A DNA stretch of 64,000 nucleotides from a virus: the IMG/VR virus record IMGVR_UViG_3300020079_000009, one strand, 5' to 3'. Both the position numbers and the translations under genes were made by a program. Shown piece by piece: positions 39,210 through 63,801 of this stretch. The notes under the pieces are model-generated. The model made no database searches and was not told the origin of the DNA. It saw only the letters and a list, made by a program, of their open reading frames with translations. Position 1 is the stretch's first letter; each line of letters starts with the position of its first letter.

Positions 39210-39345
39210 CCATTTATATAGATGTACAAAATTTTAACAAAATATCAAGGTGTCTAAAAATTTAACACATTTTTTTAACAATTATAGAGATGTACAAAAT
39301 TTTAACAACTCAATAAGATGTACAAAATTTTAACAAAAATCTCCG
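39210..39345. repeat. iteron array (right of HTH gene): four copies of GATGTACAAAATTTTAACA-like 19-mers
   Basis: Copies at 39217, 39247 (GGTGTCTAAAAATTTAACA variant), 39285 and 39316, spaced ~30-35 bp apart. Confidence 0.6.
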
Positions 39346-39396
39346 CAGTTGATTTTTACAAAATAATATGTTATAATATATATATAAAGTAAAAGG

Positions 39397-39708
39397 ATGG
39401 TAGATAATATGTCAGTAGATTATTCAGCAGGTGTTGTTTACGGTTGGAAACTGAAGCAGGGACGATATGATGAACTCCCCGACGAAATCAAAGATGAATA
39501 CGGCATTCAGACCGACTGTTATGGTTACGGCGGAGATTACTTTGTCGGTGTAAAGCAGTATGGTTGTGATTGCGGCGAGTCTGACGAGATGAATACCGAT
39601 GAAATCGCATTGCCTTTCGAAGACTTTGCAAAAATCCTCGCTGCAATACCCGACATCATAGCAAAATATCCTAATCCGTCACTGTATGTATATTGCAGAG
39701 TTTCCTAA
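39397..39708 (+). CDS. hypothetical protein (103 aa)
   Basis: Class-2-like promoter at 39341-39375; RBS AAAGGA. Confidence 0.4.
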   Translation: MVDNMSVDYSAGVVYGWKLKQGRYDELPDEIKDEYGIQTDCYGYGGDYFVGVKQYGCDCGESDEMNTDEIALPFEDFAKILAAIPDIIAKYPNPSLYVYCRVS

Positions 39709-39800
39709 CGGTGCCGTCAATTTTCGTTCCGTCACGAAAAATTGACAAACTCTAAAAATGCCGAAAAATTTTAACAGAAATAAAAGGAGAGTACAAGTCT

Positions 39801-40280
39801 ATGAATACTCAAAAATTTTGTAGAACTTGCGCCCTGGCCGACCCTGAGAATCTTGTATGTCAGCTTCTCCGAATGAGAATCGACCTTGATAAAGACTTTT
39901 GCTCAAGACACACAACTGAGGACCAGCTTGGGACTTGCGCGTACTGCGGCCAAATGTATCTTGGACCCGCAATTTTGGAGCAAACGGAAGACGGTTCGTT
40001 CATTGAACTGTGTCCTTCCTGTAACGAAAAGTTTGGAACCTGCGTGATGTGCACCGGTTTCACCAAGTGTAAACTGACAGATGAATCTTATAAACCACAG
40101 ATTCCGGTTACGGTCATCAAGACTATCCAACAGGGCAATATGAGAGCCCGCACGCAGATTGTTAACCCGGAGCGCATTGATGCAATCTGCAAGGCAGAGT
40201 GCAAATGCTGGGATGGCGAAGGTTGCGCGAGACGCGATTTCGGTACTTGCGCCAAGTATAACCAAAAGAAACCAAAGTAA
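39801..40280 (+). CDS. Cys-rich protein (159 aa, multiple zinc-ribbon-like CxxC pairs)
   Basis: RBS AAAGGAGAG; 18 Cys. Confidence 0.45.
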   Translation: MNTQKFCRTCALADPENLVCQLLRMRIDLDKDFCSRHTTEDQLGTCAYCGQMYLGPAILEQTEDGSFIELCPSCNEKFGTCVMCTGFTKCKLTDESYKPQIPVTVIKTIQQGNMRARTQIVNPERIDAICKAECKCWDGEGCARRDFGTCAKYNQKKPK

Positions 40281-40364
40281 AATTGTCACGATTTTCAGTC
40301 CTTTCTGAAGTTTCCTACATATATTATACCAAAATTTCGACAAAAAGTCAAGGAGGAGCGCACG

Positions 40365-41159
40365 ATGTTCGGATTTATAAAAAAGGCGGCACAAGGCGCG
40401 ATCGACACAGAACGTGCGCTCGCTGCATGCACTATGAACCAACAGGAGATTTATGAGAAACAAGTTGATAAACTTATCGAGGATGAAGGGGACGAATGGA
40501 TTTGGGTTCCCGGATGGAAAGCCACCGACTATTATATGCGTGGATACGGAGAATTTCAGTTCGAGATTGGACAGACCTACGAGCTTGCCGATGGTGAAGA
40601 ACCAGATGTCTGCTCTAAAGGATTTCATTTCTGCCCTAAACCCCAGTACGTGCGACAGTTTTATCATTATGGACGCCTTTTCCGAGTTGAAGTTTTGATT
40701 CGTAAAAGCGAATGGATAAAAGCTGAAGAGTGGGTGCGCGAACACCCCTATGGACCGGAATGGGGCTACAGTCTGTACCATATGGGCCCGACCTATATGA
40801 AGATGGCTGCAAAAGCGGTAAAGTTCATCGAGGAAGTTCCTGTCGCAGAGGCTCGTGAGTATTTCTACGATGTGGACTATGTCACTACTGATGAAGAGTA
40901 TTTGGATTTCATCAAGTGGATGGCCGACAAAAAAGAAATGAATGAGTGGTACTTCCAGCGCTACAAAGTGCTGATGGAACAAGCCGGAATCTCTGAAGTA
41001 CTTGCAAGAGTAATCTGGGATGACTTCAAATATAAACACAAGGGAAAAGTTGTTGCCGATTATGCTCTTGGTCTGCGAAGCAGTGGCGTAGGCACTGATA
41101 TGATGGTTTACCTTATGACGAAGAAGGCGAGCGAGCTCGTGGCTTCAGAGTCTAAGTGA
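40365..41159 (+). CDS. hypothetical protein (264 aa)
   Basis: RBS AAGGAGGAG; terminator at 41178-41200. Confidence 0.45.
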   Translation: MFGFIKKAAQGAIDTERALAACTMNQQEIYEKQVDKLIEDEGDEWIWVPGWKATDYYMRGYGEFQFEIGQTYELADGEEPDVCSKGFHFCPKPQYVRQFYHYGRLFRVEVLIRKSEWIKAEEWVREHPYGPEWGYSLYHMGPTYMKMAAKAVKFIEEVPVAEAREYFYDVDYVTTDEEYLDFIKWMADKKEMNEWYFQRYKVLMEQAGISEVLARVIWDDFKYKHKGKVVADYALGLRSSGVGTDMMVYLMTKKASELVASESK

Positions 41160-41271
41160 TGATATAGGAAGCTCTCTTGGTGAATTCAAGAGAGCTTCTT
41201 TGATTTTTTTATAAAAATATGTTATAATATATATGTAAGATAAAGAAAGAGATAAAAGCGAGGTTGATAAT

Positions 41272-41568
41272 ATGATGATTATTTTAGCTCATTGTGGAAA
41301 TGGTTACTGCGGCTGTGACTCTGAGGAGGTTTTCTTCTTCGAAGATGGAACCGCCGAAGCGATTATCAACGAAACTGTTTGCGACTGGGCTCGCGATAAC
41401 GCAGAATCCTATGCATATGTTCACTTCGGTTGGGGTGAAGAGTACTCTGATGAGGACTATGAAGACTATCTGGAGAACTATGTTGATTTCGACTGGTACG
41501 ATGCAACCTATGAAGAGTATGTTGAATGGTGTGAGAACTGGGGTTATGAGCCTAAGGAGGTTGAATAA
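41272..41568 (+). CDS. small acidic protein
   Basis: Class-2 promoter at 41201-41232, conserved leader GTAAGATAAAGAAAGA, RBS GCGAGGTTGATAATATG. Confidence 0.4.
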   Translation: MMIILAHCGNGYCGCDSEEVFFFEDGTAEAIINETVCDWARDNAESYAYVHFGWGEEYSDEDYEDYLENYVDFDWYDATYEEYVEWCENWGYEPKEVE

Positions 41569-41828
41569 TGGGTTATTTCGAGTATGAAGTTCGTGTTTAC
41601 GAAGAGTCTATGGTTGTTGAGAACCAGCTCGATAAAATGATTTATTGCGGCGTTATCTGCGCCGACAGCTATCCCGATGCCATCACCAAGGTCATTGACT
41701 ACTACGGTAAGGACGCAGTAATTGATGTTCGTCTGAGTGAGTGGGATTGCAGTGGCTGTATCATTCAGATTTCTAAGTCTGTTCTCGATGAACTGCGAGA
41801 GGACGAGGGAGACGGAATTAAGATTTAA
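41568..41828 (+). CDS. small hypothetical protein
   Basis: Translationally coupled (ATAATGG). Confidence 0.4.
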   Translation: MGYFEYEVRVYEESMVVENQLDKMIYCGVICADSYPDAITKVIDYYGKDAVIDVRLSEWDCSGCIIQISKSVLDELREDEGDGIKI

Positions 41829-41845
41829 GAAAGGAGGGTCTGAAT

Positions 41846-42424
41846 ATGGCTCTGAGTGGTGTTTATGAAATTTTTAACGAGAGATGGTGTAAGCAGACCG
41901 TGTGGCTGTATTCTGACCCTCACTTCGGTGATGAAGACCTGCGCGCAGGCATGCCTAACCGTCCTTCTGACGAGGAAATGGTAAAGATGATTAACGCTTG
42001 CGTTGGTCGTAAGGATACCATCATCTTCCTCGGTGACATTGGCGACATTGAATATGCTCGTCAGATTCGTGGCTACAAGGTTCTCATTTGCGGCAACCAC
42101 GATGTAGGTCATACTGTTTACAACGAAGTATTCGATGAGGTTTACTCTGGTCCTCTGATGATTGGTGAGAAGCTGTTGCTCTCTCACGAGCCTGTGGAAA
42201 TTCCTTGGGCGTTCAACATTCACGGTCACGACCACAAGGGTACCAAGAGAGAGGGTCATCTCAATGTCTGTGCCGATGTTATCGGTTACAAGCCTGTTCA
42301 TATGAACAACCTGCTTGCAAAGACTGGTATTCTCAGCAAGACTGAGTCTATCCACCGCCAGACTATCGACCAAGCAACCAAGAGAAAGAAAAAGCGTGGA
42401 GGTAAGAAAATTGGACAGAAATAA
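41846..42424 (+). CDS. calcineurin-like metallophosphoesterase
   Basis: Motifs SDPHFGD, GDIGD, GNHD, HGHDH in canonical order. Confidence 0.7.
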   Translation: MALSGVYEIFNERWCKQTVWLYSDPHFGDEDLRAGMPNRPSDEEMVKMINACVGRKDTIIFLGDIGDIEYARQIRGYKVLICGNHDVGHTVYNEVFDEVYSGPLMIGEKLLLSHEPVEIPWAFNIHGHDHKGTKREGHLNVCADVIGYKPVHMNNLLAKTGILSKTESIHRQTIDQATKRKKKRGGKKIGQK

Positions 42425-42635
42425 GGTAATTGAGCTTGCCTTCCGCAAGGCTTGCAAGTTCATGCGCGACCACCCCGCATATGATACCTGCGAACACATT
42501 GAGTTGGTTCAGCTGGTATATGACGGCAATAGTGACCCCGAGGGTCGCAGATACGCAGGTTATTTCCTGCAACAGGCTATCGACGAACTGAAGGAGAAGG
42601 AAAATGATGAAGTACGAGATTCTGCCGATAATTGA
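42411..42635 (+). CDS. possible small protein with TTG start
   Basis: GGAGG 8 nt upstream of TTG 42411, in frame with ORF 42315-42635; overlaps the previous gene's stop. Confidence 0.25.
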   Translation: MDRNKVIELAFRKACKFMRDHPAYDTCEHIELVQLVYDGNSDPEGRRYAGYFLQQAIDELKEKENDEVRDSADN

Positions 42636-42891
42636 TATTTATGACCTGCAGGACGCGATGGTTTCTCATTATGGAAATGATTTCCGTGTCTGCGATTTGC
42701 GCCAGATTATGTTTGGCGACCAGTATATGAACGATGTGTATAAGCGTTACAGTTGGGAAGATGGTCCCGTTGAATACACCGGCGCTTCTTGGCAGAACGA
42801 AGAGCACATTCGTCTGGAAAACTGCATCATCAGCTTTCTGGCTGATACTTTCCCCAGATATAAGGAGGTAATTGTCAATGTCGCATGGTAA
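42604..42891 (+). CDS. hypothetical protein (95 aa)
   Basis: RBS AAGGAGAAGG. Confidence 0.4.
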   Translation: MMKYEILPIIDIYDLQDAMVSHYGNDFRVCDLRQIMFGDQYMNDVYKRYSWEDGPVEYTGASWQNEEHIRLENCIISFLADTFPRYKEVIVNVAW

Positions 42892-43111
42892 AGTTGTCGG
42901 AGGAATTCCGATTGAAAAATGGAAATTGGCTTTCGCCGACGCGGTGAATACTGCGATTGATAAGGATTACTTTTCTGATACTCTGTTCTTCGAGCTGTAT
43001 CCTGAACACGGTGATGAAGATGAGGATTATGATAAGATGTGGGCCAGCGTAGATGAAGCATTCAAGGAGGTATTCGGATATGACCGACACGACTGCGGCA
43101 TCCTCGGTTAA
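42872..43111 (+). CDS. hypothetical protein (79 aa)
   Basis: RBS AAGGAGG; coupled. Confidence 0.35.
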   Translation: MSMSHGKVVGGIPIEKWKLAFADAVNTAIDKDYFSDTLFFELYPEHGDEDEDYDKMWASVDEAFKEVFGYDRHDCGILG

Positions 43112-43346
43112 GCGATACTGGAGGATAACTGCCTATACGCCGTTCTGCGGTGAGGATAAAATCGCATATTACAGCGGCACAAGTGAAGCTAATATGCACA
43201 AGTTCGCTCAGGAGCTGACAGAAGATAATGCAGCTGAATGGTGGGATACTTCTTGCGGCATGGATGAAGAGGAATACCTTGAAGAGTGCGGCTATGGCTT
43301 CGAGGAGATTTCGTACGAGACCTTCCGAGAGGAATGCGGCTACTAA
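43080..43346 (+). CDS. hypothetical acidic protein
   Basis: RBS CAAGGAGG 9 nt upstream of ATG 43080; terminator 43351-43378. Confidence 0.4.
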   Translation: MTDTTAASSVKRYWRITAYTPFCGEDKIAYYSGTSEANMHKFAQELTEDNAAEWWDTSCGMDEEEYLEECGYGFEEISYETFREECGY

Positions 43347-43455
43347 TATATGAAGCCCTGTGGAGACACAAGGGCTTCTTTGATTTTTATAAAAAAATAT
43401 GTTATAATATATATATAAAGTAAGAAAAGAAATTAAGAAAAGAGAGGTCGATACT

Positions 43456-44172
43456 ATGGCAGTAGCAAAGAGCTATCAGGGTCTGAAACAGCTGGGTCAG
43501 CCTTATGCGGTAAACGGAAAAATGTATGTAAAAGTGGAAACTGTCAAGGGCGGCACCCGCCAGGTTCGTTGGTATAGCGATGCTGAATATGCCAAGATGT
43601 ATGGTGAAGCTCCTACTGAGCGTGCTAAGCCTAAGACTGAAAAGGAAGCTCTCGGCTTTGCCAATGGCTTCATTCATATCTTCAAGGGCGATACTTATGC
43701 GGCTCTGGAATGGTTCCGTGCCTCTGTTTGCAAATACAATAAGATTTTCGGTTGGTATTGCCCTTCTACTGAAGAGCTGCCTAAGGATATTCCTATTGGC
43801 ATTGACCCTATCGAAATTCGTTGGTCTGATGTCTGCGCCGAGGATCAGATTTGCCTGAAAAATGAAACTGCGGTTAAGGAATGGTGTGCTCAGTTCCTGT
43901 ATGAGCCTTCTGATTCCGAGTTCATTGGCAATATCGGCGACCGAATCGAAGTGGTTGTTACGGTTGAGAAAGCAATCGAAATGAATGGCTACTATGGTCG
44001 TTCCACGATGCATGTGATGCATGACTACGAGGGTAATGTCATCATGTGGACCACTTCTGCTAAGCAGCTCGTAGAGGGTAACGAGTATACTCTGCGAGGT
44101 ACGATTAAAGACCACAAGGTCTATAAAAACGAAAAGCAGACCGTGCTTACTCGTTGCATGGTCCTCAACTAA
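43456..44172 (+). CDS. hypothetical protein (238 aa)
   Basis: Class-2 promoter at 43381-43412, RBS GAGAGGTCGATACTATG. Confidence 0.45.
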   Translation: MAVAKSYQGLKQLGQPYAVNGKMYVKVETVKGGTRQVRWYSDAEYAKMYGEAPTERAKPKTEKEALGFANGFIHIFKGDTYAALEWFRASVCKYNKIFGWYCPSTEELPKDIPIGIDPIEIRWSDVCAEDQICLKNETAVKEWCAQFLYEPSDSEFIGNIGDRIEVVVTVEKAIEMNGYYGRSTMHVMHDYEGNVIMWTTSAKQLVEGNEYTLRGTIKDHKVYKNEKQTVLTRCMVLN

Positions 44173-44190
44173 GAAAAGGAGATAGGGAAT

Positions 44191-44463
44191 ATGAAGAAAA
44201 TTTTTGCGATTGTTTTGGTGCTGGTGATGGTTCTGGGTTTGACGGCCTGCGGTAATGAGAACTGGGGTTTCGGTAACTACAACTTCACCCACGTCCATGT
44301 GAGCGACGGCGTTGATGGCTATTGTGCCACTATCAAGAGCTGGCACGATAATGAGCGAGGCATCGAGCTGCATACCGAAGAGTTTGGCAATGTTTATCTG
44401 AGCGAGGGCACATATGCACTGTTTGAGTATGGTAAGAATTGCCCGTTTTGCAACCAGGAGTAA
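44191..44463 (+). CDS. putative lipoprotein
   Basis: Signal peptide MKKIFAIVLVLVMVLG plus lipobox LTAC; RBS AAGGAGA. Confidence 0.55.
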   Translation: MKKIFAIVLVLVMVLGLTACGNENWGFGNYNFTHVHVSDGVDGYCATIKSWHDNERGIELHTEEFGNVYLSEGTYALFEYGKNCPFCNQE

Positions 44464-44578
44464 CATATGAGAGCGTTTTTCAGTTGCCTAATCATAGGCA
44501 TATACATTGTTTGCCTCGTTGTAGGCATATTTTATGATAGATAATATAAGGAAGCCTGCTGGTCACCAGTAGGCTTCT

Positions 44579-44625
44579 TTGATTTTTTATAAAAAATATG
44601 TTATAATATATATGTAAGATAAAGA
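44579..44625 (+). promoter_or_regulatory. class-2 promoter unit: TTGATT(44579)-N17-TATAAT(44602) with TGT extended -10 and conserved leader ATATATGTAAGATAAAGAAAGA; -35 overlaps the U-tract of terminator 44550-44580
   Basis: Near-identical 50-mers recur at ~39341, 41201, 43381, 46976, 47097, 48768, 51941, 61171, 62196, 62384, 63343, 63438 and 63672. Confidence 0.6.
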
Positions 44626-44654
44626 AAGAAAGAAAAAAGAAAGAGGTCGATACT

Positions 44655-44966
44655 ATGTCTAAATATAGAATTCTTGGTCTGGACGACGATAATCATTCTC
44701 CTATGTTTGTGTGCGAAGGTGGTCACGGTCACTACAATACTTTCAAGGAGCTGGTTGAGTTCCTGTCCCGTCCTCATCAGTTTGAAGTTGAAGTTAAGAT
44801 GTTCGCTATCGTAGACGAATGGTCTACTGAACTCGAAAAGTATGAGGAAGAAGAAATCAATGCTATGTTCGACGCTCTTGCTGGCACTTGCAGATATAGC
44901 GAAGATATGGTTCCTGAAGATGTCTTCAATCTGTTCTGGGAATCTGCAAATCGTAACTGGTGGTAA
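44655..44966 (+). CDS. hypothetical protein (103 aa)
   Basis: Class-2 promoter at 44579-44607, RBS AAGAGGTCGATACTATG. Confidence 0.4.
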   Translation: MSKYRILGLDDDNHSPMFVCEGGHGHYNTFKELVEFLSRPHQFEVEVKMFAIVDEWSTELEKYEEEEINAMFDALAGTCRYSEDMVPEDVFNLFWESANRNWW

Positions 44967-44976
44967 GGAGGTTCAT

Positions 44977-45174
44977 ATGACAAGAACTAAGGCGTTAGAG
45001 GCTTCCCGTGCACTGGATGCGATTGATGGCTTCCAGGCGTTTATGGACGAAGTTGATAAGGCGGTTAAGGATGCTGAAGACTTCGCACTTTTTAATCCAG
45101 AATTCAAAAACGCTCTGAATGAGCTGATGGAAAATGAACTCGCAAGACTGAACAAGGTACTTGCAGATTTATAA
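44977..45174 (+). CDS. small helical protein (65 aa)
   Basis: RBS GGTAAGGAGG before ATG 44977. Confidence 0.35.
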   Translation: MTRTKALEASRALDAIDGFQAFMDEVDKAVKDAEDFALFNPEFKNALNELMENELARLNKVLADL

Positions 45175-45193
45175 GAAAGAGGTTGGTATTTTT

Positions 45194-45448
45194 ATGGTAG
45201 ATATTAAGTCTATGTCCCTTGAGGAACTGTCCATTCTGGCTGAGGATATCAGCCATGAACTGAAAAAGCGTAAGGATATCCGTTTTCGTGAGCTGGCGTC
45301 TGGTGTGCTGGATGCAGTCAAGGCTCTGAAAACTGAGTTCCCTTATGTGAGTTACGATGTTGAAGTTGAAGATGAAGACGGCGGCTACCATGATGTAGAT
45401 GTGCTGGCTTATCTGGTCGACGGTAGCGTTTCTAAGTTTAGTAAGTAA
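45194..45448 (+). CDS. hypothetical protein
   Basis: RBS AAGAAAGAGG, ATG 45194. Confidence 0.4.
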   Translation: MVDIKSMSLEELSILAEDISHELKKRKDIRFRELASGVLDAVKALKTEFPYVSYDVEVEDEDGGYHDVDVLAYLVDGSVSKFSK

Positions 45449-45459
45449 GGAGGCGTGTC

Positions 45460-45747
45460 ATGTTTGATGGAAAATTTGGCGTTGACCCGCCTTGGTATAG
45501 AGAAAGCCCAATAGAAAGAGAAGCATTCAACCTTTATGCGATGGAGTGTGAGGGAATGCTTCCTACTCGACAGGGTAAAATCAATCAAGTTATCAATCTG
45601 ATGGTTGCGGCCGGGCCTATGTGTAACGACTTCGCCACTCAGTGTGATATATACGATGAGGTCGGCATCGATAGTGATACTTTTACCGACCAAGAGGTAC
45701 AATATATAGAAAGCGAGGTTGCAAAGCGACTTGTATACGGCTATTGA
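45460..45747 (+). CDS. hypothetical protein (95 aa)
   Basis: RBS GTAAGGAGG. Confidence 0.4.
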   Translation: MFDGKFGVDPPWYRESPIEREAFNLYAMECEGMLPTRQGKINQVINLMVAAGPMCNDFATQCDIYDEVGIDSDTFTDQEVQYIESEVAKRLVYGY

Positions 45748-46933: not shown

Positions 46934-47165
46934 TAAATTCCATAAGGCTCTCTGACTCGCTTCAGAGAGCCTTTTTGATTTTTTATAAAAAATATGTTAT
47001 AATATTTATAGAAAGTGATAAAGAAATCAAAATGAGTGCGAGCGGTACTCAAGGCGTTAAAAGGTAAGCCTACTGGGCACCAAAGAGCTTATTTGATTTT
47101 TTTATAAAAATATGTTATAATATATATGTAAGATAAAGAAAGAACAATAAAGCGAGGTAGATACT

Positions 47166-48767: not shown

Positions 48768-48865
48768 TTGATTTTTTCAAAAAAAAATGTTATAATATAT
48801 ATGTAAGGTAAAGAAAAAACCTTAACTCAAAATCAAAAAAAATTATAGAAAGAGGTACAAAGACT

Positions 48866-53073: not shown

Positions 53074-53075
53074 AC

Positions 53076-54488: not shown

Positions 54489-54655
54489 ATATGGGTATGA
54501 AATATATAATTGACGGCTTCAATTATCCTTATAGAGGAATTGAAGCGCAACGTCAAACTTCATATTGGTTGATTGCGGCGTTCTGGTTTGCCGTTTACTC
54601 AGTCAAGTTTGATGGTGTTAATATAATCAAGAGAAAGTAAAAGGAGAAAGAGCAT

Positions 54656-54976
54656 ATGGCAAAGGGTGCAGAAGCAAAGGCTAATGTAGTCAAGAAAATC
54701 CAAGCTGCTTTTGGAGCAGATTTTGTTGGTGAATATGATAAGAAAGTGTATGTGTGGGCACAAGAGAACGGCGAGAAAATTCAGATTGCTATTTCTATGA
54801 CCTGTCCTAAAAATCCAGTAGGTGCAGTTAATCCTGCAGCTTTAGATTTCGGTGGCGACCTTGATTTTGAAAATATGGGTGCGCCGGTTGTTGCACAGAC
54901 CTCTTTCGAGCCAGCTGAAATTTCCGATGAAGAAAAGCAGACTGTTGCAGATTTAATGGCGAGACTTGGTCTATAA
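54656..54976 (+). CDS. hypothetical protein (106 aa)
   Basis: RBS AAAAGGAGAAAGAG. Confidence 0.4.
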   Translation: MAKGAEAKANVVKKIQAAFGADFVGEYDKKVYVWAQENGEKIQIAISMTCPKNPVGAVNPAALDFGGDLDFENMGAPVVAQTSFEPAEISDEEKQTVADLMARLGL

Positions 54977-55155
54977 TTGAAATTTGGACGAAAGATAAGA
55001 GGTGTGTGAAGGGATTCACATACCTCTTTAATAGTTTTGGTTAGAAGTTAACAATTTATCTATAATGAATTTTATAGTATACAGGAGACAATTCAGCTTT
55101 GTCTTGACTTAACATAAAATTTATGTTATAATATAATTAAAAAGGAAGGAGTTTT

Positions 55156-56961: not shown

Positions 56962-56965
56962 CAGT

Positions 56966-57970
56966 ATGCCTACAGTAAGTCGCGGCGATAGACTATTATA
57001 CAGCGCGCAAATTAAAAATTGGTATGATAGACTTAATTCTGTAATTACGAAATATGGCGGAGGTATGGCTACGATTGCTGTTCCTTCTGCTACTCCCGCA
57101 AAAGCCTCCGATGTAAATAATCTTGTGGCTAAATTAAATGCCATGAAAGCAGATAGTTACCTGGGTTCAAATGCAAACTTATACCCAACATATTCTACTG
57201 TTGGAATAGGTACAATCATTTATGCGAATACGGGTAACCAGTTAGAAGCAGTTATTGCTAAACTGGAAACTATTAAGTGTCGTAACTCTTATACTCACAG
57301 TAACCAGAATCATTCTAATGGAACAAACAGCCAAACTTGTTCTAATAGTGCTCATAGCAATAATAACTCTAACACATCAAACAGTAATACTTGTTCCAAT
57401 AGTACAAATAGTAACACTTGTACAAACGGCTCTAATAGCAACACTTGTTCCAATGGTAGCCATAGTAACACCTGTTCTAATGGTACTCATGGAAATACAA
57501 ATAGCCACGGCTATAATAGCAATACCAATAGCAATAGTTCTCATGGTCAATCTTGTTCTAATGGTAGCAACTCCTACGGTGCACGTGGCAATGGATTGAA
57601 GCATCATAGTAGTAGATTCTATACTGACCAATGTTCTTATCAGTATAAATCTAATGGTACTTGTGGAACTAATGGTAGTCACAGTAATACTTGTTCAAAC
57701 GGAACCAATGGTAATACCAATAGTAATGGATATAACAGTAATACTTGTTCTAACAGTGCTCATAGCCAGGGTTGTTCTAATAGTGCGCACAGCCAGAGCA
57801 GAAGCCATAGTACACATGGTCAGACTTGTTCTAATAGTGCTCACAGCCAAACAAATTCCAATGTCACTAACTCACAGACCTGTTCAAACAGTGCTCATAG
57901 TAACACTAATTCTCACCAGGCTAAATCTAATGTAACGGTTATTGATATTATGAATAGTTATAAACCATAA
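56966..57970 (+). CDS. candidate RiPP precursor: ~115-aa leader-like N-terminal region followed by a Cys/Ser/Thr/Asn/His-rich repetitive core (~20 Cys)
   Basis: Core is imperfect 9-10-aa repeats (SNTCSNGSH / CSNSAHSQT ...) encoded by nucleotide tandem repeats 57290-57900. Lies immediately between the YcaO and two rSAM/SPASM genes, coupled (5-nt gap). Confidence 0.5.
   Translation: MPTVSRGDRLLYSAQIKNWYDRLNSVITKYGGGMATIAVPSATPAKASDVNNLVAKLNAMKADSYLGSNANLYPTYSTVGIGTIIYANTGNQLEAVIAKLETIKCRNSYTHSNQNHSNGTNSQTCSNSAHSNNNSNTSNSNTCSNSTNSNTCTNGSNSNTCSNGSHSNTCSNGTHGNTNSHGYNSNTNSNSSHGQSCSNGSNSYGARGNGLKHHSSRFYTDQCSYQYKSNGTCGTNGSHSNTCSNGTNGNTNSNGYNSNTCSNSAHSQGCSNSAHSQSRSHSTHGQTCSNSAHSQTNSNVTNSQTCSNSAHSNTNSHQAKSNVTVIDIMNSYKP
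57290..57900 (+). repeat. imperfect tandem nucleotide repeats (~27-30 nt units, e.g. TGTTC(T/C)AATAGTGCTCATAGCCA) encoding the precursor core
   Basis: Repeats of aatagtgctcatagc / aacacttgttccaatgg visible by eye; spurious ORFs on other frames (57255..57599, 57377..57682, 57654..57935). Confidence 0.6.
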
Positions 57971-57985
57971 GGAGAGTTTTGACAT

Positions 57986-59362
57986 ATGAAATGCGGATTA
58001 AATTGTATGAATAAAGAGCGCAGTGTCGCGGTGTTTTACACCTGCGGCACCTGCAATCTAAAATGTAGATATTGTAACATCGATAAGAATCCTGTGTTAG
58101 CTAAGATTGATGAAAAGTTAGCAGAGAGTTTTGAAGGCGATTACTATTTTAACCAAATGAAAGAGTGGTTTCCAAATATTGACCAGCTTCGTAAGATTGA
58201 AACTTGGGGTGGAGAGCCATTTTTGCATATGGAAAGAATTTATAATTTGATTACTCAAGTTATTGAATATTATCCATATTTCGACCAGTTCTTCTCTTCT
58301 ACAAACTTCTCATATCCAGAGTGGACAAATAAAGTATTTGGTTTAACTGACCAGTTTGCCAAGTACCCAGAAAGAACTTTTAGATTCACTTTACAGCTTT
58401 CTATGGACGGTCCTGAGTATATCAATGACCCAAATAGAGGTAAGGGCGTAACCAAGAGATGTATTGAAAATTTCAATAAGTTAATGGATATGATTCCTGA
58501 AAGACTTCCAAATAATGTTGTTTTAGAAATCGTATTCAAGCAGACTTTGGATACTTATTCAGTAAGAGAACTTTGCGATAAGCAAAAGATTATTGAGTAT
58601 TTCCAATTTTTTGAGAATTTTTATTTGAGAATCAATGAGTTAAATCTGCCAAATGTATTGATGTCTTGTACAGTACCTAACACTGCCGTACCTGCGCCAG
58701 TCACTAAGAAAGATGGCGAAATCTTTGCTGAGTTCTGTCGTCTTTGCAATGAAATTGAAGTTGAGAATTATAGAAACCATTACTTTAGATACTATGAAAG
58801 TATCATGCCTTATTTTGGCGAACCAATGCCTTTAAATGCAACATATGAACACTGTTCTACTTTGTGCGGCAGTGGGTCTATTATGGTTTGTTTATTGCCA
58901 GATAATCTGGTATCTACTTGCCATGAAGGATTTACTTCATTATATGAAGACTATAAGAAGTTTGCACAATCTTCTGGACGTGTTGAAGATGGTACTATTA
59001 ACTTTAACCAGTGGGTAAATGAAGATGGTCCTGTATATGTGTTGGATGCAGAAGGTTATAAAGAGCATGAGAGATTTATGGGTTATTATAACCATCCATG
59101 GTCAACTGCGCGAATGGTTAACACGACCGCTTTGATTCGTACTCTCGCTCTTGCAGATGAGATTGAAAGAAAATACTTGAATGAAGATGAAGCGTTGCGT
59201 GCTGCGCATTTTATGGCAGGTCATTCTTCTTATTGTATCAAGGATAATTATAATGTAACAGGTTCTCATAGCTTGACACCTGTTGGTTTGTTTAAGTTAT
59301 TATTAAACGGAGCGAAAGCTTATATTGAAGAAGGAGAAAGGAGAGTAAGATCGAATGGATAA
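57986..59362 (+). CDS. radical SAM enzyme with C-terminal SPASM/twitch-like Cys cluster
   Basis: CGTCNLKCRYC (Cx3Cx2C), GGEPFL SAM-binding motif, C-terminal CSTLCGSGS...C..C cluster. Confidence 0.8.
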   Translation: MKCGLNCMNKERSVAVFYTCGTCNLKCRYCNIDKNPVLAKIDEKLAESFEGDYYFNQMKEWFPNIDQLRKIETWGGEPFLHMERIYNLITQVIEYYPYFDQFFSSTNFSYPEWTNKVFGLTDQFAKYPERTFRFTLQLSMDGPEYINDPNRGKGVTKRCIENFNKLMDMIPERLPNNVVLEIVFKQTLDTYSVRELCDKQKIIEYFQFFENFYLRINELNLPNVLMSCTVPNTAVPAPVTKKDGEIFAEFCRLCNEIEVENYRNHYFRYYESIMPYFGEPMPLNATYEHCSTLCGSGSIMVCLLPDNLVSTCHEGFTSLYEDYKKFAQSSGRVEDGTINFNQWVNEDGPVYVLDAEGYKEHERFMGYYNHPWSTARMVNTTALIRTLALADEIERKYLNEDEALRAAHFMAGHSSYCIKDNYNVTGSHSLTPVGLFKLLLNGAKAYIEEGERRVRSNG

Positions 59363-60806
59363 TGTGATTGTAAATATTCATGACGACAAGGAATTATTCC
59401 AGCAAGAACAAGATAAATTATTGCAAGTTGTATTAGATAAACGATTCTTCTCTACTTGGAGACCAAATAATAGTGCGATGGATGTACCTCGTGGGCATGT
59501 GGAGTTATTTATTACTTCTCAGTGTAACCAAAAGTGTGAGTATTGTTATTTGGTTAAATATCCTGACCTTTATCCAAAGGAATTTTTAAACCCAGAGCAA
59601 ATCAAAGAAAACCTTAAAATTTTTTATGACTGGGTTATTGCAAATAATTATTGTATTCCTCAGATTGAGTTTTATACTGGCGAAATCTGGCATAGTAAAT
59701 TTGGAACTGATATCTTAGATATTACTTTTGATTATCTTTTAGCTGGATTGCAAGTGCGCCAGTTCATGATTCCTTCTAACTGCAGTTTTCTTAAAGACCG
59801 TAAGAGAGCTGCAATTATTCAAGGATATATTGACAAGTTTAGAGCTATTGGTGTTCCACTTATTTTCTCTATCTCTATTGATGGAAAGTATGTAGATAAT
59901 GATATTCGCCCTAATGTCAATGCGAAAATTACTCATGATGATGACTTTTATGATATGGCGTTTTCATTTTCTAAGCACAATGGATTTGGCTTCCATCCGA
60001 TGATTGCGGCAGCCTCTATTGAAATGTGGCCAGAGAATTATAAGTGGTGGAAAGAAATGCTAAAGAAATATGGCTTGACTCTTGGAGAAGTTATGATGCT
60101 TGAAGTAAGAAATGGAGACTGGACTCCAGAGAAAATTCAAGCGTTCTTAGATTTTGAGGATATTTTAATTGATGGTCTTTTAGAGCGTAATGATAATGAC
60201 CCAATTAAAGCTTGTATTTTCGGTTTTGGTATTAACCAAACTTATTATGATAAGAATTTGTTAGCTATCGAAGACGAAGAAATGAGTGCATATACGCCTT
60301 ATCATTTAGCAGAAACTGATGAATTTCTTGGATGTACGTTACAAAATACTTTAACAGTTCGTTTAGGTGATTTAGCAATTTGCCCTTGCCATAGAACTGC
60401 TTATAATAAAAATCTATATGGTTGGTTTACTGTTGAAAATGGGGCAATTACAGGTATTAAATCTAATAATCCTCATCAGGCTATTAGAAATCTAATGGTA
60501 AATAACCATGTGGGAACTTTAGGTTGCGACTCTTGTTTCTATAATAGATATTGTATGGGTGGATGCCCTGGTCAACAAATGGAAAAATTTAATGACCCAT
60601 ATCATTTAGACCCTACGGTTTGCAACTTCTTAAAGAGTAAGATTAAGCATTTGATTAAACGTTACCATGATTTAGGATTTTTGGATTGGTTAAAAGAAAA
60701 CATTTCTCCTTACCATGTATTTTATCCAAATGCGCAGAATCTTATTCGTTTATATGAAAATGTAATGGAGGAGGAGCGTCATGAGCGAATGGCAGAATTT
60801 AGATAA
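59355..60806 (+). CDS. radical SAM/SPASM-domain enzyme (second)
   Basis: SQCNQKCEYC (Cx3Cx2C); C-terminal SPASM-like CPCHRT...GCDSCFYNRYCMGGCPG. Overlaps the rSAM1 stop by 8 nt. Confidence 0.8.
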   Translation: MDNVIVNIHDDKELFQQEQDKLLQVVLDKRFFSTWRPNNSAMDVPRGHVELFITSQCNQKCEYCYLVKYPDLYPKEFLNPEQIKENLKIFYDWVIANNYCIPQIEFYTGEIWHSKFGTDILDITFDYLLAGLQVRQFMIPSNCSFLKDRKRAAIIQGYIDKFRAIGVPLIFSISIDGKYVDNDIRPNVNAKITHDDDFYDMAFSFSKHNGFGFHPMIAAASIEMWPENYKWWKEMLKKYGLTLGEVMMLEVRNGDWTPEKIQAFLDFEDILIDGLLERNDNDPIKACIFGFGINQTYYDKNLLAIEDEEMSAYTPYHLAETDEFLGCTLQNTLTVRLGDLAICPCHRTAYNKNLYGWFTVENGAITGIKSNNPHQAIRNLMVNNHVGTLGCDSCFYNRYCMGGCPGQQMEKFNDPYHLDPTVCNFLKSKIKHLIKRYHDLGFLDWLKENISPYHVFYPNAQNLIRLYENVMEEERHERMAEFR

Positions 60807-61176
60807 AATTTTTGTTGACGATGCCTATGGCATTGGTAATGCTGATGAAAATTTTACTATTATCACAAAAGAATGGCTTGCTAATGGTGGAAAGATTGAT
60901 TCTTTCACTCAAGAAATTATTAAGCCAGTAGACAATATCGCTGTTATGGCAGAAGATATGGAAGGTACAACTCCTCTTCTTTGGAAAGAAAGATTGATTT
61001 TCTATTCCGATGGCAGAATGGAAAGATACTTCTTGTATAATAGATATCCTTCTGATATAATTCGCACAAGGGTTAATAGCCGTCCAGCTTTAACCCCTTG
61101 GGCACAAACCATTATGCAAGAGGCAATTTATGAAGAGAGATGTCGAGTTGAAGATTTGCAAAACGAAGATTGGTAA
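60781..61176 (+). CDS. hypothetical protein (131 aa) downstream of and overlapping rSAM2
   Basis: Start overlaps the rSAM2 stop by 26 nt. Confidence 0.4.
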   Translation: MSEWQNLDKIFVDDAYGIGNADENFTIITKEWLANGGKIDSFTQEIIKPVDNIAVMAEDMEGTTPLLWKERLIFYSDGRMERYFLYNRYPSDIIRTRVNSRPALTPWAQTIMQEAIYEERCRVEDLQNEDW

Positions 61177-61236
61177 ATTGATTTTTAATTAAAAATATGG
61201 TATAATTATAGTAATAAGAGAAAAAGGAGATTTTTT

Positions 61237-62187
61237 ATGGCGAACTTTTATTGTCCAGGCTTTTATGAAAATGCCGTTATGTATAAAAGACTCTTATGGT
61301 TCCAAAAGTATTATCCACAGTGTTGGGTAGATGGCGCAAAAATTACTCATATTTTTGGTTGTTTCCCTAACTGTATTTGGAATGGAGGGTCTACTTGGAT
61401 TCAATATCCGCCCGCAAAACCTATCATGAGAAATGTATTCCAGTGGTATAAAGACCAAGGTATTATTATTCAGTTAACTTTTACTAATCCTATGTTACAG
61501 GAAACTGATGTATACGACAGATATGCTAATTGCATTTTAGATGTTGCGGTTGAGATTTTAGGATATGAGCAATTAGAAGTATTAGTTTCTGCTCAGTGTC
61601 TTGAGGATTATATTCGCAATAAATATCCAAAAGCCAATGTAACAAGAAGTATTGTTGGTGCAACTGGCTGCGAAAACACTTGTAGCACAATTGAAGATTA
61701 TGTCGCGCTATTGGATAAATATCCTCGTATTGTTGTACCTCGTAAAAAGGTTAATGATATTGATTTTATTCAAGGCTTTCCTCAGGAATTAAAGCATCGA
61801 GTAGAGTTACTTTGTACAGATGCCTGTCCCATTGATTGCCCTCGAATTTATCAGCATTATACTAAATTAGGTATGGAACAGTTATGGGAAGATGTTTCTT
61901 TTGAAGAAGTAATTTGCACGGGTTTTGCAAAAGATAATCCTTTCCATGAAGCAACTTATTCTCAATATAAGATTACTCCACCTGAAATTGCGGCATATGA
62001 AGCTCTTGGATGGTCAGAGTTCAAAATTAGCGGTCGTATTTCTACTGCGGCAGCTCCTTTGAGATTGGTACCATATTTAATTAAGCCAGAATTTTGGGAA
62101 GATGTTTATATCAACATTTATTTCGATATTTTTGGTGATAATAGCTATTTCCCAGACTATGATTTCTGGTCAGATTCAACTATTTAA
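61237..62187 (+). CDS. hypothetical Cys-containing protein (316 aa)
   Basis: Class-2-like promoter at 61171-61204, RBS AAAGGAGA. Confidence 0.45.
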   Translation: MANFYCPGFYENAVMYKRLLWFQKYYPQCWVDGAKITHIFGCFPNCIWNGGSTWIQYPPAKPIMRNVFQWYKDQGIIIQLTFTNPMLQETDVYDRYANCILDVAVEILGYEQLEVLVSAQCLEDYIRNKYPKANVTRSIVGATGCENTCSTIEDYVALLDKYPRIVVPRKKVNDIDFIQGFPQELKHRVELLCTDACPIDCPRIYQHYTKLGMEQLWEDVSFEEVICTGFAKDNPFHEATYSQYKITPPEIAAYEALGWSEFKISGRISTAAAPLRLVPYLIKPEFWEDVYINIYFDIFGDNSYFPDYDFWSDSTI

Positions 62188-62280
62188 TCTTAATTGATTT
62201 TTATAAAAAATAATGTTATAATATATATGTAAAGATGATAAAAGAATATAAGGCACATACAGCAAAATGCTTAAAAAGCT

Positions 62281-62352
62281 AATGCAATAGTCAAACGGTT
62301 AAGACATTACCCTTCCACGGTGAAAGTTGGGGTTCGATTCCCCATTGCGATT
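62281..62352 (+). tRNA. tRNA-Gly(UCC) (no encoded CCA; one A-A mismatch in acceptor stem)
   Basis: Manual fold: acceptor AATGCAA/TTGCGAT, U8A9, D-loop with GG, anticodon stem TTACC/GGTGA, loop CTTCCAC (U33, UCC, A37), T-arm TGGGG-TTCGATT-CCCCA. Flanked by complementary AAGGCAC (62251) and GTGCCTT (62358). Driven by class-2 promoter at 62196-62226. Confidence 0.55.
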
Positions 62353-62628
62353 CAGAGGTGCCTTGGAAATAAAAATTCTTTTTGATTTTTTATAAAAAAT
62401 ATGTTATAATATATATGTAAGATAAAGAAAGCCCTTTAATCTTAGTCGTAAAGGAAAGACGCGAGTCCGGCCATCGTATTCACTGTGAGTTCCTCTCGTA
62501 AGAGGGTTGACGGTAGTAGTGCCCAGCGCAACTGGTGAGTAAACAGGTCCGAGGGTATGAATAGGTGTCACGACCACCTAACTTTCTTTGTCTGATATAT
62601 GTATTATATAGGAAAGGAGAAATTATCA

Positions 62629-62952
62629 ATGAGTTCTCTTGGTAAGTGCTATATCTACATTGATGACACGAGATATGACTACTCCAATGTTCCTGATGGA
62701 ATGGCGTTTGTTCATTGCAAGACTTACAAAGATGCTATTGAGAAACTCCGTTTCTATATCGAGCATGGAACTAAGCTGATTGTCGACTTCGACCATGACC
62801 TTGGTTGCAAGAAGAATGGTTACGATATCGCTAAATGGATTGTCGCCTCTGGTTATCCGAACATTAGGTTTAGAGTCCATTCTATGAACCCAGTAGGAGC
62901 TCAGAATATCAGAGAGACTTTGAGCCACTATGGCTACGAGGAAATCAGATGA
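62629..62952 (+). CDS. hypothetical protein (108 aa) with ~170-nt structured leader
   Basis: RBS AGGAAAGGAGAAATTATCAATG; class-2 promoter at 62384-62412. Confidence 0.45.
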   Translation: MSSLGKCYIYIDDTRYDYSNVPDGMAFVHCKTYKDAIEKLRFYIEHGTKLIVDFDHDLGCKKNGYDIAKWIVASGYPNIRFRVHSMNPVGAQNIRETLSHYGYEEIR

Positions 62953-63065
62953 AGTTACTTTTCATTTTGGGTGGCTGCGCGATGGCCGCTCTGTGTATCG
63001 CCGGAGTTGGTGCAATTCTGGGAATCATCGCGGTTCATATGCATCAAGCAAGTGAAAATTTTTGA
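62949..63065 (+). CDS. possible 38-aa membrane peptide
   Basis: ATG overlaps the upstream stop (ATGA); hydrophobic MKLLFILGGCAMAALCIAGVGAILGIIAV. Confidence 0.25.
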   Translation: MKLLFILGGCAMAALCIAGVGAILGIIAVHMHQASENF

Positions 63066-63157
63066 AAAACTGTGGACAGAGTGGGATAAAACCTACTTGA
63101 CAGTTTTCAAATGATAATACCTAAATAAAAGACCGTTACTGCAATTTTCAAATGATT

Positions 63158-63237
63158 GCCTGCCAAGCCGGAAGTCGGAGGTTCGAGCCCTTCTCCCCCT
63201 GCCAACATAGGGGGATAGCTCAGCTGGGAGAGCGCCG
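63158..63237 (+). tRNA. circularly permuted tRNA-Gly(GCC)-like gene: 3' half (nt 30-76 incl. CCA) 63158-63204, spacer ACAT, 5' half (nt 1-29) 63209-63237
   Basis: 3' half is GC-CTGCCAA-GCCGG-AAGTC-GGAGGTTCGAGCCCTTC-TCCCCCT-G-CCA. 5' half is AGGGGGA-TA-GCTC-AGCTGGGA-GAGC-G-CCG. Joined 5'+3' they give a 76-nt cloverleaf with all-Watson-Crick acceptor (7/7) and anticodon stems (CCGGC/GCCGG), U8, A14, G18G19, U33, GCC, A37, T-loop TTCGAGC. No matching partner half exists in conventional order on either side. Confidence 0.6.
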
Positions 63238-63801
63238 TTAAATCGAAAAAGCGGTCTTGTTTTTTATCGCCGGAATTGCTGAAGGAACCATAGAAGTAGG
63301 TGGCCTCCAAACCAAGGTTCCTGTTAGGGAGGCTGAAAAAACTTTTTTGATTTTTCTTAAAAAATATGTTATAATATTTATAGAAAGTTAAGAAAGAGAT
63401 TTTTACAAGACCTTTCCAAGATGTTGAAAATAAAAAATCTTTCTTGATTTTTCAAAAAAAATATGTTATAATATATATGTAAGTTAAATAAAGGATATGG
63501 AAATTCCACGAAGACTATTGATGTGATGCAAGGAGTTTCGGAGATTCGAGAGAAAATAGGAAACCATTGAGATTATTTAATGAGCATTAAAGACGACTTC
63601 AGCAACTTTTGAGGAAACATTTTTACTGAATACTTGAAACTTCCATGTTGTCTTGTTCTAAACGAAAAATCTTAATTGATTTTTTCAAAAAAATATGTTA
63701 TAATATATATGTAAGATAAAGAAAGAAATCTTACAGGTTGTGCCTTCAAGCTGTGATTTCAGCGTTGTCCTAAAACAGCGTAGAATATCAGCAACAGATA
63801 T

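Follow-up and report, generated by a model that had tools for sequence, protein, structure and literature searches.

What is the short A/T-rich sequence that recurs between genes in the right part of the virus record IMGVR_UViG_3300020079_000009? The first-pass annotation of the 64,000-nt stretch analysed here (the window) had described it as a second class of promoter, made of terminator-promoter fusions with an invariant 50-nt core and a conserved transcribed leader, and had suggested that the leader is a recognition element. Our analysis indicates, with a probability of about 75%, that class 2 is a family of approximately 16 host-type promoters, of the housekeeping sigma-A/sigma-70 kind, which are partly fused to terminators and would head and insulate transcription units. 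In the best supported reading, class 2 consists of strong host-polymerase promoters that divide the region at 36.7-63.7 kb into insulated units of approximately 1-3 kb; copies head almost every unit there, including protein genes, tRNA-Gly, tRNA-Asn and non-coding stretches (Table 1).

The pattern TTGATT-N14-TGnTATAAT had 16 matches in the window, 15 on the + strand and one on the − strand, and none in 100 dinucleotide-preserving shuffles. Fourteen + strand copies lay within 39341-63720 (all those from 39349 to 63676 in Table 1 except that at 55104), in agreement with the at least 14 copies claimed earlier. The core, however, was not invariant. With units delimited from −35 to +16 (51 nt), only five sites matched the consensus with three mismatches or fewer. 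Identity between copies within the window was 88% for −35 to −7, 83% for the six bases after the −10, 61% for +1 to +16 and approximately 31% in the flanks, and it was approximately 85% over the segment from −35 to −1.

Judged by its sequence, every copy is complete as a host sigma-A/sigma-70 extended −10 promoter, and a special polymerase would not be required. The −35 is TTGATT, which matches TTGACA at four of six positions and runs into a T-tract and then an A-tract; the spacer is 17 bp long in every copy, with 2% GC and a T-run followed by an A-run (TnAn). The extended −10 reads TATGnTATAAT, with the TG in all copies, TATG in most and an exact TATAAT in 16 of 16. The discriminator is all-A/T, being ATATAT in 11 of 15 copies, and a purine stands at the predicted start, 7 nt downstream of the −10, in every copy. 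The initial transcribed region is free of C and approximately 85% purine, with the consensus R-T-A-A-R-R-T-A-A-A-R-A-A-A-R. Class 2 thus resembles the extended −10 ('TRTG' −16 region) promoters of Gram-positive bacteria, reportedly described by Voskuil and Chambliss in 1998, in having TATG directly before nTATAAT, a 17-bp spacer and a weakened −35, although those cellular promoters do not share a conserved spacer, discriminator or set of first 15 transcribed bases.

All copies are intergenic and point in the same direction as the downstream gene or tRNA, 15 of 16 on the + (gene) strand, and the single − strand copy faces − strand genes. Predicted 5' untranslated regions (UTRs) span 13-63 nt in protein units and 52-91 nt before tRNAs, and in the protein units the leader (+1 to +16) runs straight into a stereotyped ribosome-binding site, GAGGTnGATACTATG. 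We considered and rejected a mobile-element reading (of the type of miniature inverted-repeat transposable elements), as we found neither terminal inverted repeats nor target duplications; the strict co-orientation with genes points to promoters instead.

The first-pass annotation proposed that the U-tract of the upstream terminator forms the −35. This held for the four copies (41200, 43380, 44579 and 46975) in which a strong hairpin (dG −18 to −24 kcal/mol) lies against the −35, and not for most others, which have an A-tract, AAAAATCTTnn, where the terminator hairpin would sit. The three hairpins quoted as examples, at 44550, 41178 and 46940, were recovered within approximately 10 nt, at 44551-44577, 41168-41198 and 46945-46972, directly followed by TTTGATTTTT; tracts of TTTGATTTT lie after all four terminator hairpins. 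With a GC-rich stem followed by a U-tract, these three and the hairpin at 43352-43378 fit predicted intrinsic terminators, and the two that were folded gave z-scores of −5.8 and −7.1. Weak hairpins occur at 36746 and 47093, a decayed hairpin lies at approximately 47068-47092, and the other 10 class-2 copies have none. RNA structure of the whole unit (−50 to +20) as a processing site was rejected, with z-scores of 0.07 to −1.7 against shuffles for the terminator-less units. A further strong terminator, at 49292-49317, is followed by genes for a CitMHS-like (Na/sulfate-symporter-like) transporter and a chorismate mutase (49292-51010) that lack a promoter of their own.

To avoid circularity, we fetched relatives by protein similarity and not by promoter sequence. 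A search of IMG/VR with the 533-aa protein encoded at 47166-48767 returned no relatives and was replaced by a protein search with contig look-ups; the four loci compared were L042, L044 and L046 (79%, 75% and 60% identity in the 533-aa protein) and L032 (48% in a 404-aa protein). Gene order and promoter positions were both kept across the four, and the same promoters stood at the same positions even where flanking proteins were only 41-48% identical. For instance, promoter 39349 has equivalents in L042 (1035), L044 (1286), L046 (3085) and L032 (3368), and promoter 48768 is nearly identical in L032 (12344), L042 and L044 (10612). In ungapped comparisons of equivalent promoters, identity was 86-96% for −35 to −7, 86-97% for the discriminator (−6 to −1) and 72-81% for the leader, as compared with 40-75% in the upstream flank and 36-68% at +17 to +32. 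In the most distant relative, L032, the leader was 73% identical and the flanks 36-40%, close to the approximately 31% of unrelated flanks within the window. Purifying selection thus acts on the whole 50-bp unit, most strongly on the promoter proper.

The same picture emerged from an unbiased set of 77 unique copies without the search seed, in which information content was high from −35 to approximately +15 and gone by +18, and C was nearly absent up to +17. An exact 31-mer over the −10 and leader was present in 12 stretches of IMG/VR viral contigs, which shared with the window, by BLAST, only the approximately 70-bp unit and a tRNA at the DNA level. A 26-mer recurred in 18 contig stretches from metagenome-assembled genomes, whose assignment to many unrelated taxa is what mis-binned phage DNA would give.

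The leader was purine-rich in every copy (12-15 of 16 positions) and conserved in relatives, but far from uniform. Its 16-nt form GTAAGATAAAGAAAGA was exact at four of 15 promoters (41200, 44579, 47093 and 63676), with one mismatch at 62382 and two or three at 48768 and 63444, making seven with three mismatches or fewer, and 5-10 mismatches elsewhere. Moreover, equivalent promoters in close relatives carried any of three variants, GTAAGATAAAG, AGAAAGTGAAAG or ATAAAGTAAAG. Promoter 41200 has GTAAGATAAAGAAAG in the window and L044 (A-type) and ATTTAT-AGAAAGTTAAGAG in L042 (B-type); promoter 44579 has GTAAGAT.. in the window, AGAAAGTGAAAG or AGAAAGTAAGAAAAG in L042 and L044, and ATAAAGTAAAG in L046. 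The leader type of promoter 43380 is kept in L042, L044 and L046. With approximately 96% identity in the rest of the promoter, these swaps look like block replacement from other copies. The three leader types appear to be functionally equivalent, which weakens the idea of an invariant, sequence-specific recognition element. The same idea is weakened by the lower conservation of the leader as compared with −35 to −1, and by the start region of class-1 promoters (see below), which is 83% purine versus 85% in class 2; purine richness is therefore general to promoters of this phage and not a mark of class 2. The marks specific to class 2 are TTGATTTTT, the TnAn spacer, ATATAT and a T/A pattern at +2, +3, +4 and +7.

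What constrains the leader would then be, as these comparisons favour, composition and a few positions: a purine start, no C, no pyrimidine-G step after +1 in the consensus, and A at +3 and +4. In the unbiased set the best kept positions were +3 (A, 96%), +4 (A, 92%), +2 (T, 68%) and +7 (T, 66%), and 12 of the 16 window copies, like the consensus, have no pyrimidine-G step after +1. The start of the phage T5 promoter N25 is also purine-rich. N25 is the standard model for modulation of promoter escape by the initial transcribed sequence (PMC12464699), which can affect promoter strength more than 10-fold, with purine content tracking productive yield and pyrimidine-G steps slowing escape (PMC5961368).

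Some leaders may also act as RNA. A 5'-terminal hairpin GUAAGRU..AYCUUAC (at least 6 bp) could form in 17% of 143 unique copies versus 9% in shuffled controls; in long-leader and non-coding units, the first seven bases of the leader pair with a downstream AYCUUAC, and promoter 48768 could form such a hairpin from GTAAGGT..ACCTTA. The tRNA-Asn unit contains a compensatory change, from GTAAGAT/ATCTTAC in the window to GTAAGGTT/AACCTTAC in L044. This points to a possible additional role in RNA stability in a subset of units. Separately, the stretch that separates the class-2 leader from a tRNA or tRNA-like gene repeatedly contains the motif GGCACWTACAGCAA (window 62252-62266; leaders of L001, L025, L026, L003 and L005), whose CTTAC pairs with GTAAG of the leader.

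As claimed, class 2 heads the units of the 39-48 kb block and both detected tRNAs. The promoters flanking the putative gene cluster for a ribosomally synthesized and post-translationally modified peptide (55104 and 61178) are more distant, differing from consensus at 17-18 of 51 positions. The 'three tRNA loci' were two, since only tRNA-Gly (62281) and tRNA-Asn (63802) were detected in the window; the third is a YrlA-like element without a class-2 promoter of its own.

Short spacings between consecutive promoters were real (46975-47093, 118 nt; 63347-63444, 97 nt; 63444-63676, 232 nt), but the very short transcripts deduced from them were not borne out at 46975-47093. Between the genes for the 404-aa and 533-aa proteins, L042 and L046 contain a terminator, a class-2 promoter, a gene for a 168-aa SprT-like protein and another class-2 promoter, and L032 contains in the same slot the SprT-like gene, four more small genes and one extra promoter. 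Promoter 46975 corresponds to that of the SprT-like gene in L042 (8315) and L046 (8315). In the window and L044 the same two promoters are only 60-85 nt apart, and the sequence between them retains the start of the SprT 5' UTR (GTGATAAAGAAATCAAAA) and the 3' tail (CTACTGGGCACCAAAGAGCTTA) with a decayed hairpin. These retained pieces, and the intact gene in relatives, indicate that 46975-47093 is a deletion relic. Its RNA would fold end to end (z −4.05); we considered a dedicated small RNA or an 11-codon peptide and rejected both, given the comparison with L032, L042, L044 and L046 and the lack of a Shine-Dalgarno sequence.

Relatives differed in gene content at several other cassette junctions. 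The window has a specific segment at 44191-45448, bringing its own terminator and promoter 44579; non-homologous contents between promoters 41200 and 43380 (41272-43346); a transporter and chorismate mutase insert at 49344-51010, absent from all four relatives; and a 7-kb YcaO/radical-SAM cluster inserted where a conserved 106-aa gene meets the tRNA array, a place at which L032, L042 and L044 lack the cluster and L046 has a different set of three genes. This cluster (55104-62187) encodes YcaO, a 334-aa Asn/Ser/Cys-rich repeat protein, two radical-SAM-like proteins and two more open reading frames (ORFs). Cassette-mediated recombination is thus possible. However, the SprT deletion left both cassettes and pieces of the UTR, so that its end points lie inside the unit, and other insertions or deletions also fall within units, e.g. 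that of a 207-aa hydrolase in L042.

The three distinct promoter classes recognized earlier were indeed present. Class 1 comprises 34 copies of TTGACAAA followed by a GC-rich spacer and TGnTATAAT, on the + strand at 22.4-36.7 kb. Its spacer has 42% GC versus 2% in class 2, its discriminator is variable (AATTAC, AAAGAT and others), and its copies have upstream A-tracts and, in many cases, GGGG..CCCC stems around the −35, with the look of the published PeSL elements discussed below. Each class-1 promoter heads a small ORF without known relatives, and the region is like a host-takeover module. The third type has an AnTn spacer, AAAATTTTnTGGTATAAT, and occurs at 3586(−), 19907(−), 19928(+) and 40351(−). 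In the 41-kb structural module of phAss-1, a distant relative, we found no TTGATT-17-TATAAT site and only AnTn-spacer promoters. Before the gene at 36809, a class-1 and a class-2 promoter stand in tandem, as also in L032 (763/840) and L046 (647/724); the retention of this pair in two relatives suggests that the classes are not simply interchangeable. Because discriminators and spacers differ, and because of this tandem before one gene in three phages, it is plausible that class 2 differs in timing from class 1 and the AnTn class. The translation-initiation region GAGGTnGATACTATG is common to class-1 and class-2 genes and to relatives (e.g. 41257-41274, 43441-43458 and 47151-47168). Four minus-strand promoter units, antisense in the class-1 region (27870, 29507, 32909 and 34186), share an upstream TTTGTGCA motif and are followed by GC-rich hairpins and not by ORFs; they could be small RNAs.

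The first-pass annotation had called for a search for phage-encoded sigma or transcription factors. The only candidate for a sigma factor was ORF 18801-19853(−) (350 aa), labelled as such by PHROGs (PHROG 5767, E 3e-53). Its product ends in a Cys-rich motif at the C terminus and has over 6,600 homologues, with identities of 71-93% among the best 120. The sigma label was not corroborated, as we found no Pfam sigma domain in the protein and no relative among PDB sequences. An AnTn-spacer promoter precedes the ORF, which opens the virion-gene strand. A winged-helix (MarR/Crp-like, ScpB-like) gene, 38529-39182(−), lies between iteron arrays at 38438-38534 and 39220-39335, with six 20-bp iterons (AGATGTACAAAATTTTAACA and variants), the last of which ends 13 nt before the −35 of promoter 39349. 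This layout is kept in L042, L044 and L046, and the protein and its iterons may regulate promoter 39349, as an operator array, or mark a replication origin.

Putting these observations together, we propose that unmodified host RNA polymerase would read TTGATT and TG-TATAAT, that the A/T-only segment from −12 to −1 would melt easily, and that a purine-rich start without pyrimidine-G steps would favour promoter escape. The resulting transcripts would have a short, unstructured 5' UTR leading into the Shine-Dalgarno sequence or, in non-coding and long-leader units, a 5'-terminal hairpin. At 41-47 kb, where the U-tract of the GC-rich terminator of the preceding unit would double as the −35/T-tract of the next promoter, transcription would be stopped and restarted within approximately 80 bp, insulating each unit from its neighbours. 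The class-specific spacer, ATATAT and start region probably set kinetics or timing apart from class 1 and the AnTn class, as in T5; this is the least certain step.

Several points weigh against so simple a promoter family. The −35 departs from TTGACA at two positions, and no more than 4-5 of the 16 copies are true terminator fusions. The spacer, discriminator and start region are conserved beyond what sigma-A contacts alone require, leaving room for an extra factor. Nor does simple promoter function account for the persistence of the relic pair 46975/47093 in the window phage and in L044, or of the tandem 63347/63444 in three phages.

One way to account for the conserved start is a role of the leader in the RNA, as a ribosome standby site, a 5' stabiliser or a hairpin arm against 5'-exonuclease (RNase J1-type) decay, which we regard as possible but doubtful. 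Its AGAAAG matches the start of the extended Shine-Dalgarno AGAAAGGAGG, yet the leader lacks the GGAGG core; 5' UTRs are short and the leader runs directly into GAGGTnGATACTATG, but it also precedes tRNAs, whose 5' leaders are presumably removed in maturation (RNase P). The 5'-terminal hairpin and its one compensatory change fit this role, although the enrichment is only about two-fold and whole-unit folds are no better than shuffles. A polypurine 5' stabiliser from B. subtilis work is said to derive from phage SP82, a name that does not appear in the paper citing it. That precedent is published (Hue et al. 1995, as listed in PMC3997798). Alternatively, class 2 could be factor-dependent, with its TTGATTTTT box, TnAn spacer, ATATAT and start region read by a phage protein, such as a T5-like RNA-polymerase-binding protein, a T4 MotA/AsiA-like appropriator/activator or a phage sigma, so that it fires at another time than class 1. 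Conservation from −35 to +15, which far exceeds two hexamers, the contrast with class 1 in discriminator and spacer GC, and the class-1/class-2 tandem in the window, L032 and L046 all speak for such a factor, as do the small ORFs without known relatives that fill the class-1 region, typical of host-takeover genes, and the T5 precedent, where the discriminator defines the class and gpT5.026 mediates its reading (PMC7472727). Nevertheless, all elements of a sigma-A extended −10 promoter are already present in each class-2 copy, and leader variants swap at equivalent promoters, making this explanation unlikely.

If the repeats were instead portable homology patches for shuffling gene cassettes, as has been proposed for PeSL elements (see below), with promoter activity secondary, the differences in gene content at junctions and the block replacement of leader types, as at promoter 41200, would be expected; the end points of the SprT deletion and the changes inside other units speak against it, the strict co-orientation and the constant spacing from start codons agree with promoter function, and we consider this improbable. 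A pause element is far less probable still. The −10-like TAAGAT/TAARRT at +2 to +7 would hold sigma-A and pause polymerase near +16/+17, loading an antiterminator or regulating early elongation, as at lambda pR', with AACGAT at +1 to +6 and a pause at +16 (PMC4005639). The most conserved leader positions (+2 T, +3 A, +4 A and +7 T), TAnnnT at +2 to +7 in 10 of 16 window copies and a conserved block ending at approximately +16 agree with it. On the other hand, 15 or more copies head short units and not one late operon, Pfam and PHROG scans of the window ORFs revealed no Q-like gene, AGAAAGT-type leaders lack the T at +2, and the pattern could be mere A/T-rich purine composition; we take the similarity to pR' as resemblance only. 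Promoters for a phage-encoded, T7-type RNA polymerase would likewise show a block of approximately 50 nt, nearly invariant through the start site, but the perfect sigma-A architecture (17 bp, TG, TATAAT) and the absence of a polymerase-like ORF among the window proteins scanned make them scarcely credible.

A bolder combination is that ATATAT and the TAARRT-containing first 16 bases serve as a handle for a small phage protein or a sigma-A pause, switching units of approximately 1 kb relative to class 1 and the AnTn class, while terminator fusions allow polymerase to re-initiate without leaving the DNA. Polymerase recycling of this kind, following an intrinsic terminator, is documented by single-molecule experiments (PMC6978380). 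We view this as a long shot, and sigma-dependent pausing and recycling at the fusions as leads and not findings; if true, it would amount to a phage-wide 'stop-and-restart' architecture of transcription in an abundant clade of uncultivated gut phages.

Host-type promoters repeated between phage genes have precedents. In T4-like phages, PeSL elements combine strong sigma-70 promoters with terminator stem-loops, flank orphan ORFs and take part in modular shuffling (Arbiol et al. 2010, PMC2839356; Comeau et al. 2014, PMC4122927). Like them, class-2 elements join a sigma-70-type promoter to a terminator stem-loop in a repeated unit, with conservation extending across 50-100 bp; they are densely spaced among small or accessory genes, insulate units and coincide with differences in gene content between relatives. 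Unlike them, they belong to an unrelated lineage (a Bacillota-type gut phage) without sequence homology, their motif is unlike the published one, the stem-loop is present in only 4-5 of 16 copies and lies upstream, with its U-tract as the −35, instead of between or over the hexamers, they also drive backbone genes and tRNAs and not orphan ORFs alone, and the best-resolved deletion (the SprT slot) does not have the cassettes as end points. Class 2 is thus an analogue of PeSL and not a member, and a second, independent example of such organization of phage accessory genes.

Host sigma-70 polymerase transcribes all three temporal classes of T5 promoters; it is chiefly the discriminator that sets early apart from late promoters, and the change from early to late transcription is influenced by a small protein that binds the polymerase (Klimuk et al. 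2020, PMC7472727). The phage of the window similarly has several sigma-70-type dialects in one genome, A/T-rich and conserved outside the hexamers, with a class-specific discriminator (ATATT in T5 early, ATATAT in class 2). They differ in the host, which is probably a Gram-positive anaerobe, and in the TTGATT −35 with TnAn spacer, specific to this phage group; no homologue of gpT5.026 came to light, though no search was aimed at one. Literature searches for the motif strings returned nothing relevant, and the phAss-1 paper (PMC10607447) contains no promoter analysis. As far as these searches showed, the promoters were not previously described for this phage group, and class 2 is a further case of the known phage sigma-70-type classes and PeSL-like cassettes. 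It reveals no new mechanism; the point of interest is what separates three sigma-A-type dialects in one genome, as in T5.

Table 1. Positions of class-2 promoters, their terminators and landmark genes in the window
Feature	Coordinates	Strand	Remarks
Capsid-like protein	9997-11106	−	
Portal	13731-15401	−	
Terminase-like protein	15786-17525	−	
Class-2 promoter	36746-36796	+	74 nt downstream of class-1 promoter 36672; would drive ORF 36809-37252; outside the range first annotated
Class-2-like promoter	38003-38053	−	TTGATTTTCAAATGAAAATATGATATAAT; same direction as ORF 37520-37942 (−)
Class-2 promoter	39349-39399	+	Leader ATAAAGTAAAAGG; heads unit 39397-41159
Putative terminator hairpin	41168-41198	+	GAAGCTCTCTTGGTGAATTCAAGAGAGCTTC; dG −22.4, z −5.8; T-tract is the −35/T-tract of promoter 41200
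Class-2 promoter	41200-41250	+	Exact leader GTAAGATAAAGAAAGA; heads unit 41272-43346
Putative terminator hairpin	43352-43378	+	GAAGCCCTGTGGAGACACAAGGGCTTC; dG −18.2; fused to promoter 43380
Class-2 promoter	43380-43430	+	Leader ATAAAGTAAGAAAAGA; heads unit 43456-44463
Putative terminator hairpin	44551-44577	+	GAAGCCTGCTGGTCACCAGTAGGCTTC; dG −24.2, z −7.1; fused to promoter 44579
Class-2 promoter	44579-44629	+	Perfect match to 51-nt consensus; heads unit 44655-46933
Putative terminator hairpin	46945-46972	+	AGGCTCTCTGACTCGCTTCAGAGAGCCT; dG −20.1; fused to promoter 46975
Class-2 promoter	46975-47025	+	Discriminator ATTTAT, leader AGAAAGTGATAAAG; promoter of relic unit
Remnant of deleted SprT-like gene cassette	47026-47092	+	No credible ORF
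Class-2 promoter	47093-47143	+	Exact leader; would drive 533-aa ORF 47166-48767
Class-2 promoter	48768-48818	+	Begins right after stop codon of 47166-48767
Class-2 promoter	51951-52001	+	Variant spacer; heads unit 52018-54976
Divergent relative of class 2	55104-55154	+	−35 TTGACT; 18 of 51 positions off consensus; before YcaO/radical-SAM cluster
Divergent class-2 copy	61178-61228	+	17 of 51 positions off consensus; before ORF 61237-62187
Class-2 promoter	62194-62244	+	Would drive tRNA-Gly 62281-62353
Class-2 promoter	62382-62432	+	1 mismatch to consensus; would drive 213-nt leader and ORF 62630-62952
Class-2 promoter	63347-63397	+	ATTTAT/AGAAAGTTAAG type; 97 nt upstream of next copy; z −2.98
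Class-2 promoter	63444-63494	+	Would drive conserved non-coding stretch 63479-63675
Class-2 promoter	63676-63726	+	Exact leader; would drive tRNA-Asn 63802-63877; 5' hairpin GUAAGAU..AUCUUAC

Several units near the tRNAs have no protein product, and no known Rfam family covers any class-2 unit. The first 110 nt of 63479-63675 are nearly invariant in the window, L042 and L044, although neighbouring proteins are 75-79% identical; the stretch lacks a credible ORF and shows a few compensatory pairs, and this near-invariance in three phages indicates that it is probably a non-coding RNA gene, and a candidate new one. The tandem 63347/63444 before it recurs in L042 and L044; its outer stem is conserved and its interior varies. 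The leader at 62432-62610, before ORF 62630-62952, is approximately 180 nt long and GC-richer; it is present in L042 and absent in L044, where the promoter abuts the ORF. For 62417-62630 we found no Rfam match and a fold no better than shuffles (z −1.0). Orthologues of the product of ORF 62630-62952 in L042 and L044 match Pfam cREC_REC (receiver-like).

The tRNA-like element at 63149-63266 matches YrlA (Y RNA-like) with 30.6 bits, below the Rfam threshold. Its layout is circularly permuted (T-arm, acceptor 3' strand, loop, acceptor 5' strand, D-arm), and no fewer than eight related loci retain it, at least one of which (L001) has a class-2 promoter approximately 60-100 nt upstream of the element. 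Full ROOL RNA genes were present in the tRNA regions of relatives (L021 263-937(−) and L005 7982-8394(−), 305 and 263 bits), and none was detected in the window, which ends 120 nt past tRNA-Asn. L005 and L012 also contain an 88-nt partial match to the OLE model, just above threshold.

As to the phage itself, the left 20 kb of the window carries virion genes on the minus strand. The capsid-like protein is 49% identical to its phAss-1 counterpart and approximately 39% to those of large Enterococcus phages, and the relatives of capsid and portal are from phAss-1 and from phages of Enterococcus and Bacillus. The nearest named relative is phAss-1, from the human gut and of the 'code 15 clade', and its authors predict a Clostridia host for that group (PMC10607447). 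We found no near-identical DNA for the 39-49 kb region among GenBank phages, and the window phage therefore lacks an annotated close relative. It is, however, present in many ENA assemblies, and for one of its proteins over 6,600 homologues were retrieved, of which the closest lie on 175-205 kb contigs, indicating a large, abundant, uncultivated gut phage. From these matches, it appears to be a phage of approximately 200 kb, distantly related to phAss-1.

Class 2 provides a highly specific signature for transcription units in this abundant clade of uncultivated gut and rumen phages, marking gene starts, tRNA and non-coding RNA genes (YrlA-like, ROOL and new candidates), insertion points of accessory genes and decayed cassettes. 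The 50-bp unit is also a candidate strong, compact promoter for Bacillota, combining promoter and terminator insulator. Packing can be extremely tight, as the TGA in the −35 TTGATT of promoter 51951 (51951-51956) is the stop codon of ORF 51178-51954. Elsewhere in the window, we noted two auxiliary metabolic genes, encoding FolD (methylene-tetrahydrofolate dehydrogenase/cyclohydrolase) at 20523-21380 and a 5'-deoxynucleotidase-like protein at 27049-27498.

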